DNA of 64,000 bases from positions 1 through 64,000 of the IMG/VR virus record IMGVR_UViG_3300043447_000395. One strand, written 5' to 3'. This document shows positions 28,431 to 29,921 of the stretch, one piece after another. The first letter of the stretch is position 1, and each line of letters opens with the position of its first letter. Below the pieces are notes generated by a model. It searched no databases and was not told the DNA's origin. It saw only the letters and a program-made list of their open reading frames with translations. The stretch comes from a virus (lineage: Duplodnaviria > Caudoviricetes). The position numbers were made by a program, and so were the translations under genes.

Positions 28431-29921
28431 TTAACATAATGGGTAACACACTCCCCATGTACAAGATTGATTTTTAGGACATGAAGGACATGGATACCAA
28501 CAAGCATTTACACACGCCCAACTTGGACAATATCCGTTAAAATTGTGCTCAACCGAAACAAATGAATCATTATTAGTTGATCCTTCCGTTTTAGTTAAAA
28601 ACAACTTAGCGGTTTCAACTGAAATAAACCAACCTGAAAATGCTCTTTTGTGTTGAACATTTGAAATTACGGTTTTTCTAACAAAGTTTATATTGTTATC
28701 TGTTGTATTTAATAACAAAACCACATCTCCCACAATTATATTAAATAATCTTTCAAACTTAACCACACCTTCTCTATCTATTAGATACATTGAAGCCATC
28801 GTATCTTCCCAAGTACTATCGTCATCAAAAGTTAATTCGTTCATATAAGTTAACGTGTTCACTCTTTGTTTTGCGGTAATAATATTGGTTGTATATATTG
28901 AATCACTTAATAACGTTTCGTATGTAAGAGCAAAATCTGATGATATGTAACTATCAATACTGGTTCCATTTGCATTTGGTATTTCGATTGTTTTGATACT
29001 ATCACCAACTTGTAAATCTAACGCAGTTTTAAATGATCCGTCGGCCATTTCTACCATGTCCGTATCTATCAACTTTGGTAAGTTTGTTAATGTTGGGTTT
29101 GTGGTGTAACTCGCCTTAAAATCGGAATCAACTTCAAATGTCGTTGGGTCATAAGTTACATTATCTAATAAAATATTTTGATTTAATTTTGTGTATTGAC
29201 CAATTTGAAATGACTCCAAATTTGGGGGAAATAAAATATTTAAACTTCTAATTACAGTTGAGTGTCCTTCCCATGTTTTATTAGGGTTGTATAAATATTC
29301 CATTAAGAAGTATTCAGGACTAACGTTATTTGTAATTAAAGTATCCAATTCAGATTGAGTTGTTACTTTAAAGAATTTAGGGTAGAGTGACTTATCGTAT
29401 CCTGGGTATCTCGCCTTTAAAATAAAATTAGGATGTTCACCATTATCATTTATAGATGTGATGTTCGACACCAATGTGTTATTATCGTCCAAATATGCGA
29501 ATTTAGAACCAAAAGAAGTGTCCTTAATTAGATTCATAAATTCAATCTTATCCCTACAATATGTGTCATCAACTAAGGCCGTGGTGTCGTAAGCACTTCT
29601 AATAATTAGAGTTGTATCATTATCCTCTATGTATGGAATTGTAATAGATGTTGAACCTACTCCATGAAATTCATAAGTTATCGAACTTCCACTATAATGT
29701 GCCTGTAATGCTACGTGAAATGGTCCAATATCCCCAACATAATGTATTGTTTGAAAATTATTATCCGCAACAAATTGATACAGAACCTCTAAATCTAAAC
29801 AATCCACATCATCTTCCACTTTTTCGGGTCCATCCCATCCTACTGCGGTGTTTATTTCAATTGGTCTTAAATTACCATCTTTATCGTACATAAAGTCCGA
29901 ACCTACTAATACTGTTCTCAT
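28431..29921 (-). CDS. circularly permuted ATP-grasp + Hint domain + C-terminal Cys-rich peptide fusion
   Basis: GSDF...IEINT at the N-terminus, FILKARYP, FLMEYL (CP-ATP-grasp); KLIDTDMVEMADGSFKTALDLQVGD...ISVE...EHN (Hint); then 36 aa with 8 Cys. Confidence 0.75.
   Translation of the reverse strand: MRTVLVGSDFMYDKDGNLRPIEINTAVGWDGPEKVEDDVDCLDLEVLYQFVADNNFQTIHYVGDIGPFHVALQAHYSGSSITYEFHGVGSTSITIPYIEDNDTTLIIRSAYDTTALVDDTYCRDKIEFMNLIKDTSFGSKFAYLDDNNTLVSNITSINDNGEHPNFILKARYPGYDKSLYPKFFKVTTQSELDTLITNNVSPEYFLMEYLYNPNKTWEGHSTVIRSLNILFPPNLESFQIGQYTKLNQNILLDNVTYDPTTFEVDSDFKASYTTNPTLTNLPKLIDTDMVEMADGSFKTALDLQVGDSIKTIEIPNANGTSIDSYISSDFALTYETLLSDSIYTTNIITAKQRVNTLTYMNELTFDDDSTWEDTMASMYLIDREGVVKFERLFNIIVGDVVLLLNTTDNNINFVRKTVISNVQHKRAFSGWFISVETAKLFLTKTEGSTNNDSFVSVEHNFNGYCPSWACVNACWYPCPSCPKNQSCTWGVCYPLC

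Follow-up and report, generated by a model that had tools for sequence, protein, structure and literature searches.

We analysed a 64,000-nucleotide stretch of DNA (the window; positions 1 to 64,000 of the IMG/VR virus record IMGVR_UViG_3300043447_000395, Duplodnaviria; Caudoviricetes) and focused on one of its genes, the product of which, P0001, was predicted to combine an ATP-grasp ligase domain, a Hint domain and a short Cys-rich tail in a single polypeptide. The window lies within a 104-kb IMG/VR record that is estimated to be 31% complete; tail-fibre and SbcC-like genes are present and the GC content is about 30%. Relatives of the gene were found on phage contigs of up to 335 kb, in one case next to a tail sheath gene, and one relative (L091) is located on a contig binned with a Flavobacteriaceae metagenome-assembled genome (MAG). 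Positions of the features of the locus are listed in Table 1.

Table 1. Features of the ligase-Hint locus, with positions in the window
Feature	Position	Strand	Basis
Whole gene, 496 aa (P0001): ATP-grasp ligase, Hint and Cys-rich tail	28431..29921	-	Open reading frame list, translation
Residues 1-280: predicted small ATP-grasp amide-ligase domain of the glutathione synthetase (GS)/GspS/YgiC type	29082..29921	-	AlphaFold2, VIA, Foldseek, residue conservation
Residues 283-460: Hint domain, predicted to perform C-terminal cleavage only	28542..29075	-	VIA, Foldseek, profile search, residue counts
Codons of H459-N460; predicted scissile bond N460/F461	28542..28547	-	Sequence, conservation in homologs
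Hypervariable tail of 36 aa (residues 461-496), with 8 Cys and the single Lys K483 (codon 28473-28475)	28434..28541	-	Sequence, tail counts
29-aa micro-gene MAKIISNTEINTLNTT...ANS, 32 nt past the stop codon	28310..28399	-	Conservation across loci
105-aa Cys-rich zinc-ribbon-like partner, ends in K-T-F-I	26844..27161	-	phrog_13558 (E 1.5e-8); DUF6171-like as Atlas lead
Two 2-oxoglutarate (2OG)-Fe(II)-oxygenase-type genes, 177 aa (KSLL) and 193 aa (KTLL)	27161..28286	-	Pfam, PHROG
Co-directional downstream run (SGNH/GDSL-like and others), most with a K/R-x-L-I type tag	21369..26823	-	C-terminal tag count
DUF2061 small membrane protein, directly upstream	29949..30164	-	Pfam (E 8.6e-17); 24/58 loci and distant L009

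As a single query, P0001 gave nothing in Pfam, PHROGs, NCBIfam or the PDB sequences, and no match was obtained by tblastn against 50,697 phage records, a set that may leave out near relatives. The AlphaFold2 model of the whole protein, for which an alignment of 90 sequences with 24-84% identity (A2) served as input, reached a mean predicted local distance difference test (pLDDT) value of 88.6 and a predicted template modelling (pTM) score of 0.84; only residues 464-496 were poorly defined, with a pLDDT of about 48 for the tail. The motifs that an initial annotation of the window had picked out (GSDF...IEINT at residues 7-25, ILKARYP, LMEYL, ISVE, EHN and the Hint start motif) are all located where it had placed them. 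The Hint domain starts at K283, the first residue of the motif KLIDTDMVEMADGSFKTALDLQVGD, also contains ISVE, and ends with EHN at residues 458-460. The tail, FNGYCPSW...CYPLC, has the composition described earlier (8 Cys, 3 Trp and 5 Pro) and one Lys, and as a free peptide it would have a predicted mass of 4052.7 Da in the reduced form. There are only 2 Cys in the whole body of the protein (residues 1-460). Both parts of this body are known enzyme types, yet their fusion was found neither in the literature nor in family libraries. A literature search for a combination of ATP-grasp and Hint returned no description of such a fusion, and no description was found of a Hint domain reduced to C-terminal cleavage ahead of a hypervariable peptide.

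Modelled alone, residues 1-282 reached an AlphaFold2 pLDDT of 94.8. The best VIA matches of this domain were Escherichia coli YgiC (Z 8.1), GS-like effectors (Z 7.8) and GspS (Z 7.7), with further matches to the circularly permuted (CP) ATP-grasp proteins 3k1t and 3n6x, Trypanosoma brucei GS, Cp1B and soybean homoglutathione synthetase. The top 9 matches, and 12 of the best 13, were GS, GspS, YgiC, CP-ATP-grasp, Cp1B or trypanothione synthetase. Alignments with the GS/GspS/YgiC group (Z 6.2-8.1) extended over model residues 1-276, whereas those with classical ATP-grasps (RimK, LysX/ArgX, TTLL, Ddl) started only at about residue 55. This alignment pattern suggests that the N-terminal hairpin with D9 and E22-x-N24 is the metal element that classical ATP-grasps hold near the C-terminus. 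Foldseek comparison of the domain with human GS gave an E value of 1.3e-6 with a probability of 1.0, and yeast GS was matched at about 1e-6. In the profile alignment of relatives, D9, E22, N24, R108, D118, K169 and R225 were invariant apart from single exceptions; K169 and R108 are presumably the ATP-binding residues. At the sequence level, hhalign placed residues 8-32 on YgiC 101-125 (LDLAWD...LLENNADTP) with a weak probability of 0.4%, neither Pfam (E up to 10) nor NCBIfam (E up to 0.1) yielded a match to an ATP-grasp family model, and Atlas returned ATP-grasp as leads only (0.85-0.88).

In the model, the order of elements in the N-terminal domain is that of GS, GspS and YgiC. The term circularly permuted ATP-grasp, proposed in the initial annotation, holds for the GS/GspS-like fold of residues 1-280; the permutation exists only relative to the classical enzymes and is already present in GS, GspS and YgiC. 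Judged by its model and conserved residues, the domain appears to be a minimal ATP-grasp amide ligase of this type with metal and ATP residues intact. GspS, YgiC/YjfC and eukaryotic GS share with it the whole-domain fold and, presumably, a D...E-x-N metal motif near the start. Differences are its size of about 280 aa, with the first ~93 residues of YgiC missing, a sequence similarity below Pfam detection, and its fusion to a Hint domain and a peptide. According to Pederick 2023 (cited in PMC12568646), YgiC and YjfC are peptide-spermidine ligases, enzymes that attach an amine to the C-terminus of a peptide.

For residues 283-460, the Hint fold suggested previously was predicted by AlphaFold2 and matched by VIA, Foldseek and profile search alike. 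VIA comparison with inteins, bacterial intein-like (BIL) domains and hedgehog Hint gave Z values of 14-15 and root mean square deviations of 2.3-3.0 Å over 135-148 residues, and aligned model residue 283 with intein residue 1 and residue 460 with the last intein residue (e.g., Mtu RecA 1..440, PI-PfuI 1..454). Foldseek matched the same groups at E values from 1e-7 to 1e-5 (best 1.8e-7). When the family profile was searched against PDB, the Methanocaldococcus jannaschii KlbA intein came first (E 1.7e-7), ahead of other inteins, BIL2 and hedgehog. P0001 did not match Pretoxin-HINT (PF07591) at E up to 10, and its relative P0218 scored 21.3 bits against a cut-off of 27.7.

To evaluate conservation, we used 271 retrieved proteins aligned to the family profile, 247 of which (24-96% identity) cover the Hint end. 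N460 was present in 247 of 247 and H459 in 238 of 247 relatives, in line with the conservation of the terminal His-Asn anticipated earlier, and the pair was found in all 81 genes from IMG/VR loci. Position 1 of the Hint domain is occupied by K (148), H (32), L (19), I (9), S (8), T (5) or G (4) and never by Cys. Block B, aligned on T-x-x-H of KlbA, reads T374-x-x-S377; the Thr is kept, Ser377 occurs in 193 of 247 relatives, and His is never among the residues listed. The +1 residue is F461 in P0001. It varies among the 201 of the 247 relatives that carry short tails of 20-70 residues, where F, A, L, Y, G, V or S, among others, is found and Cys occurs only twice. Block-F helpers for Asn cyclisation are not conserved, K439 being variable and F432 standing in place of Asp. 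By fold, P0001 belongs to both the Hint and the ATP-grasp superfamily, and it lacks the residues that define an intein. Classical, class 2 and class 3 splicing were rejected in the absence of Cys1, of a +1 nucleophile and of a block-F Cys. As Cys1 is missing, the block-B His is replaced by Ser, the +1 position varies and the Asn is invariant, splicing, already doubted in the initial annotation, is excluded, which leaves cleavage at the C-terminus as the probable reaction. The pattern of residues fits a Hint domain that has lost splicing and the N-terminal acyl shift, is under strong selection on its C-terminal Asn, and is fused to a catalytically constrained ligase.

Asn cyclisation without transesterification results in C-terminal cleavage, which is established for inteins and A-type BIL domains; A-type BIL domains that have no +1 nucleophile are prone to this reaction (PMC5874633). 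Structures of A-type BIL domains (Tetrahymena BUBL BIL2, 6y75/6tmm; Clostridium thermocellum BIL, 2lwy) matched the fold of the phage Hint domain at Z 13.6-14.9, and the His-Asn end, the missing +1 nucleophile and the tendency to C-terminal cleavage are further features in common. Yet BIL domains keep Cys1 and can cleave N-terminally or splice, whereas in the phage domain position 1 is Lys and the block-B His is exchanged for Ser, and for this reason only the C-terminal reaction is left to it. We consider it likely from these residues that cyclisation of Asn460 frees a 4.05-kDa peptide with a free alpha-amine.

The relatives diverge immediately past His-Asn, in sequence as well as in length and domain content. 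The Cys count was even in 200 of the 201 short tails (8 Cys in 145 and 6 Cys in 43), and all 201 contain at least one Lys, 160 of them exactly one. The pattern C-x(0-2)-K was found in 182 short tails; in shuffled sequences it occurred in 109 on average and in 127 at most. Of the 201 short tails, 67 have neither Asp nor Glu. The post-HN tail is hypervariable, as had been supposed, apart from its Cys scaffold and the single Lys. For evolutionary analysis we used 59 unique genes from 80 IMG/VR loci. The identity of non-Cys tail positions was 44% at a body identity of 80-90% and 27% at 70-80%. In the same pairs, the nonsynonymous rate (dN) of the tail was 3-10 times that of the body, the synonymous rate (dS) of the tail was also higher than that of the body, and their ratio (omega) was 0.2-0.9 in the tail, never clearly above 1. 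With dS raised as well and omega at these values, exchange of tail cassettes is as likely as diversification driven by point mutations, and positive selection on the tail was set aside on the same omega. A diversity-generating retroelement was set aside too, as no template-like repeat of the tail-coding DNA was found within positions 20000-38000. Searched alone against the PDB sequences, the tail gave chance matches only (E 1.3 and above).

The family is widespread in large aquatic phages: a database of 5.8 billion proteins yielded 753 homologs after clustering at 90% identity (238 clusters at 50%), none of them named, and 80 loci were found in IMG/VR. The ligase domain is retained in the fusion across the 247 relatives. 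In the distant homologs P0204, P0213, P0241, P0269 and P0193, the Cys-peptide is followed by a second Hint domain, which starts with Cys, scores above the Pfam PT-HINT and Intein_splicing thresholds, and ends with His-Asn followed by Lys-Lys; it was only by such second Hint domains that the PF07591 threshold was passed. The second Hint looks like an A-type-BIL-like insertion, since relatives of the same clade that do not have it carry tails ending in ...K. BUBL loci are reportedly built in a comparable way, with a small domain flanked by two BIL domains, similar to the Hint-peptide-Hint relatives observed here. In other relatives, a longer Cys-rich segment precedes a Peptidase_S74 start, SD-x-R-L-K-x-N-I; the Peptidase_S74 cut-off was exceeded by P0219 and narrowly missed by P0192 and P0176, and P0203 scored lower still, at 17.2 bits. 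Long cargos of 700-1240 residues with BACON domains also occur after the same His-Asn. The bracketing of the peptide on both sides by self-cleaving modules, the second being either Hint or Peptidase_S74, suggests that the peptide is meant to be freed and is hard to explain otherwise.

The micro-gene listed in Table 1 recurs 10-60 nt downstream of the fusion gene in 58 of 58 unique IMG/VR loci; its products are 24-30 aa long, end in -N-S or -H-S, and are far more conserved than the adjoining tail. Of 86 related loci, 84 encode a homolog of the DUF6171-like protein, among them the distant L008, L009 and L010 and the MAG locus L091; at L091, its gene and the beginning of the fusion gene share 4 nt. 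Members of this family have 90-105 residues and six conserved Cys, and the C-terminus is K-T-[LI]-[LI] in nearly all of the 59 unique sequences. Two copies of the module (L055 and L066) with unrelated tails, each accompanied by its own micro-gene and DUF6171-like gene, are present on one 211-kb phage contig (IMGVR_UViG_3300042892_005961). On a 14-kb contig, P0145 (L092:81-1034) joins the ATP-grasp domain in frame to the micro-protein. L092 lacks Hint, cargo and the DUF6171-like gene, and the predicted Mg-ligand Glu is changed to Gln (E22Q). This looks like a decayed locus, which also links the micro-protein to the ligase, and as a single case it supports a functional link.

A C-terminal tag of the form K/R-[TSN]-[LI]-[LIF] was detected in 11 of 73 genes of the window vs. 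0.6 expected, and in 9 of the first 11 genes that follow the ligase-Hint gene downstream. Across 62 related loci, the tag was carried by 52 of 62 genes at position +1, by about half of those at +2 to +7, and by some 10% of upstream genes. Variants on unrelated enzymes include KKLL, RSLI, RNLI, KSLI, KTLV, PTLI, KTFI, KTLL, KSLL and others, and tagged regions of the window are 21369-28286 (-), 34265-34990, 38651-41365, 42264-43016, 45163-46155 and 51882-53240. The tag might serve for docking, as a ligase substrate or as a degron. Regarding the two oxygenase-type genes, the 193-aa protein matched Pfam 2OG-FeII_Oxy_3 (E 2e-13) and the 177-aa protein phrog_2954; members of the 193-aa family accompany the gene at 47 of 58 loci, and 2OG oxygenases are also found at the distant L008 and L009. 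Other neighbours in relatives are an Asp/Arg hydroxylase and a radical S-adenosylmethionine (SAM) enzyme (29 loci). At L008, a flavin-dependent Trp halogenase (L008:1220-2446) lies beside the two-Hint homolog P0204, the peptide of which has two Trp; this halogenase and two 2OG oxygenases flank P0204, and all of them end in -L-L or -L-I.

On balance, we favour an interpretation of P0001 as a self-processing three-part phage protein, the peptide of which is released and then ligated or tailored, with the enzyme body in the role of a leader. Asn460 would form a succinimide and the N460-F461 bond would break, giving rise to a 36-residue peptide of ~4 kDa with a new alpha-amine and a 460-residue ligase-Hint body. 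Less firmly, the peptide, either tethered or just released, might serve as a substrate of the ligase domain, with an amide formed via the single Lys or the new N-terminus; it might be a substrate of the co-encoded enzymes with the common C-terminal tag as well, and the body would then act as does the leader peptide of peptides that are synthesised by ribosomes and modified post-translationally (RiPPs). The micro-protein and the DUF6171-like protein would be obligate partners. That the ligase acts on the released peptide is a proposal we make tentatively. Candidates for the amine are the single Lys and the new N-terminus; as for the carboxylate, conservation makes the -N-S end of the micro-protein and the K-T-L-I ends better candidates than the variable end of the tail itself.

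A more specific form of this idea, which we regard as possible but doubtful, is a two-part ATP-driven ligation device in which the Hint domain generates the amine and the ATP-grasp domain activates a carboxylate as acyl phosphate, in place of the thioester of inteins and A-type BIL domains. Asn cyclisation would expose the alpha-amine of the cargo beside the active site, the carboxylate would come from the -N-S end of the micro-protein or from the K-T-L-I end of the DUF6171-like or other tagged proteins, and it would be linked by a new peptide or isopeptide bond to the N-terminus or to the Lys. Such a device would amount to a splicing-like joining of separately encoded proteins or, within the peptide, to head-to-tail or tail-to-Lys cyclisation.

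The architecture may represent a novel route by which small peptides are made, released or attached. If the peptide is indeed released and ligated or tailored, it would follow a new biosynthetic logic, with an enzyme as covalent 'leader' and release built in, and tailoring enzymes would be recruited via a common C-terminal tag. The Hint domain would be a natural self-cleaving tag that allows any residue at the new N-terminus, the N-terminal domain possibly a new protein or peptide ligase, and the tails a large natural library of disulfide-type mini-peptides, with host receptors, proteases or defence proteins as possible targets.

Possible RiPP-like traits of the system are the core-like hypervariable peptide, its predicted release by the Hint domain and the neighbouring 2OG oxygenases, radical SAM enzymes and Trp halogenase; the genomic island also modifies fibres and glycans. 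In borosins (OphMA-type), the core peptide is located at the C-terminus of its own modifying enzyme, which replaces the leader peptide; this enzyme is an N-methyltransferase and release is performed by a separate prolyl oligopeptidase. In the phage protein, by contrast, the enzyme is of the ATP-grasp type and release would be built in via the Hint domain. Graspetides and microviridins offer a second parallel, as an ATP-grasp enzyme acts there on a ribosomal peptide and Lys side chains are possible amine partners. Yet the RiPP-type ATP-grasp 7mgv matched the phage N-terminal domain at a Z value of 4.1 only, vs. 7-8 for the GS/GspS type, and the phage system has no separate leader-bearing precursor. 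Graspetide-type cross-linking was rejected on the basis of this low Z value and of the 67/201 tails free of Asp and Glu.

Decoration of the virion or attachment of an adhesin would account for part of these data, and we consider it unlikely. Here the cargo amine freed by the Hint domain would be joined by the ligase to a carboxylate of the virion or of a partner, such as the fibre C-terminus exposed by Peptidase_S74, the -N-S end of the micro-protein or a K-T-L-I-tagged protein; the cargo would be a host- or surface-binding module, and hypervariability of the tail a result of host-range pressure. The BACON and Peptidase_S74 chaperone domains in cargos of relatives are typical of phage fibres, the tail sheath gene adjoins one homolog, and the island in the window holds collagen-like Peptidase_S74 fibres and tail fibres. 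Many ATP-grasps act on protein or peptide C-termini, as YgiC and YjfC do according to the secondary source given above, and the micro-protein and the DUF6171-like protein have conserved C-termini that look like ligase substrates. On the other hand, the ligase would be a single-turnover enzyme toward its own cargo, and with 36 aa the peptide would make a small receptor-binding module. No more probable to us is that the Hint domain merely frees a polymorphic, disulfide-rich effector, e.g., a P1-Lys protease inhibitor or a toxin, with the ATP-grasp in an unrelated small-molecule role (such as a glutathione- or polyamine-like amide) or a carrier role. The C-x-K motif of the tails may resemble canonical inhibitor loops. 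The order of a constant N-terminus, Hint and a variable C-terminus is the polarity of polymorphic toxins (PMC3482391), one relative has a weak PT-HINT match, and the elevated dS of the tail suggests cassette exchange. However, no secretion signal and no variable immunity-like gene was found; the micro-gene and the DUF6171-like gene are conserved rather than co-varying, and a toxin-immunity pair was rejected on these grounds. The ligase, moreover, is kept in the fusion in 247 relatives, and the sole locus without Hint and cargo has E22Q.

In bacterial polymorphic toxins, Pretoxin-HINT (PF07591) precedes a variable C-terminal module, whose autoproteolytic release has been inferred (Zhang et al. 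2012, PMC3482391). The phage protein is similar in that Hint stands directly ahead of a polymorphic C-terminal module and divergence starts after His-Asn. It differs in its N-terminus, which is an ATP-grasp ligase and not a trafficking or RHS region, in the lack of a nucleophile at position 1, in a cargo that is mostly a Cys-peptide of 30-60 aa, in having no immunity gene, and in being encoded by a phage. There is also the case in which no cleavage occurs, the Hint domain being a degenerate spacer and the tail staying attached as a metal-binding, Fe-S or disulfide knob. Loss of Cys1 and of the block-B His, poor conservation of the block-F helpers and a tail left unmodelled by AlphaFold2 would agree with it, and eight Cys could bind metals in the reducing cytoplasm. 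We regard it as very improbable all the same, given that an inactive Hint domain would not hold Asn in 247 and His in 238 of 247 relatives at its last two positions amid variable downstream sequence, and that a second self-cleaving module brackets the peptide in relatives.

Several observations count against the release and subsequent ligation or tailoring of the peptide. P0001 is below threshold for every Pfam, PHROG and NCBIfam model, the ATP-grasp Z values of 7-8 are only moderate, and the hhalign match to YgiC is weak (0.4%). The tail is poorly modelled, has no match to a known peptide family, and its omega is not above 1. Since the block-F helper residues are not conserved, cleavage could be slow or conditional. 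The long BACON cargos are at odds with a role of the entire family in small-peptide natural products, and the collagen-like tail fibres of the island, instead of the peptide, could be what the 2OG oxygenases and glycosyltransferases act on.

The remaining observations concern the surroundings of the gene. A candidate T4-type late promoter motif, TATAAATA, is located 10 nt before the ATG (29932-29939, -); as 13 such sites occur in the AT-rich window vs. 15 expected, we gave it no weight. Collagen-repeat fibre proteins, one of them with a C-terminal Peptidase_S74 chaperone domain, are encoded at 12555-17366 (-) and 62037-63725 (-), where their genes adjoin a GT9-type glycosyltransferase and a GT4-FkbM methyltransferase fusion. 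Upstream of the ligase-Hint gene, the region 29949-32833 (-) encodes DUF2061, a 128-aa nucleotidyltransferase-like protein, an adenosine 5'-phosphosulfate (APS) kinase and a carbamoyltransferase, in an order that is kept in close relatives. This set suggests a supply of 3'-phosphoadenosine 5'-phosphosulfate (PAPS) for the sulfotransferase-like genes of the island.

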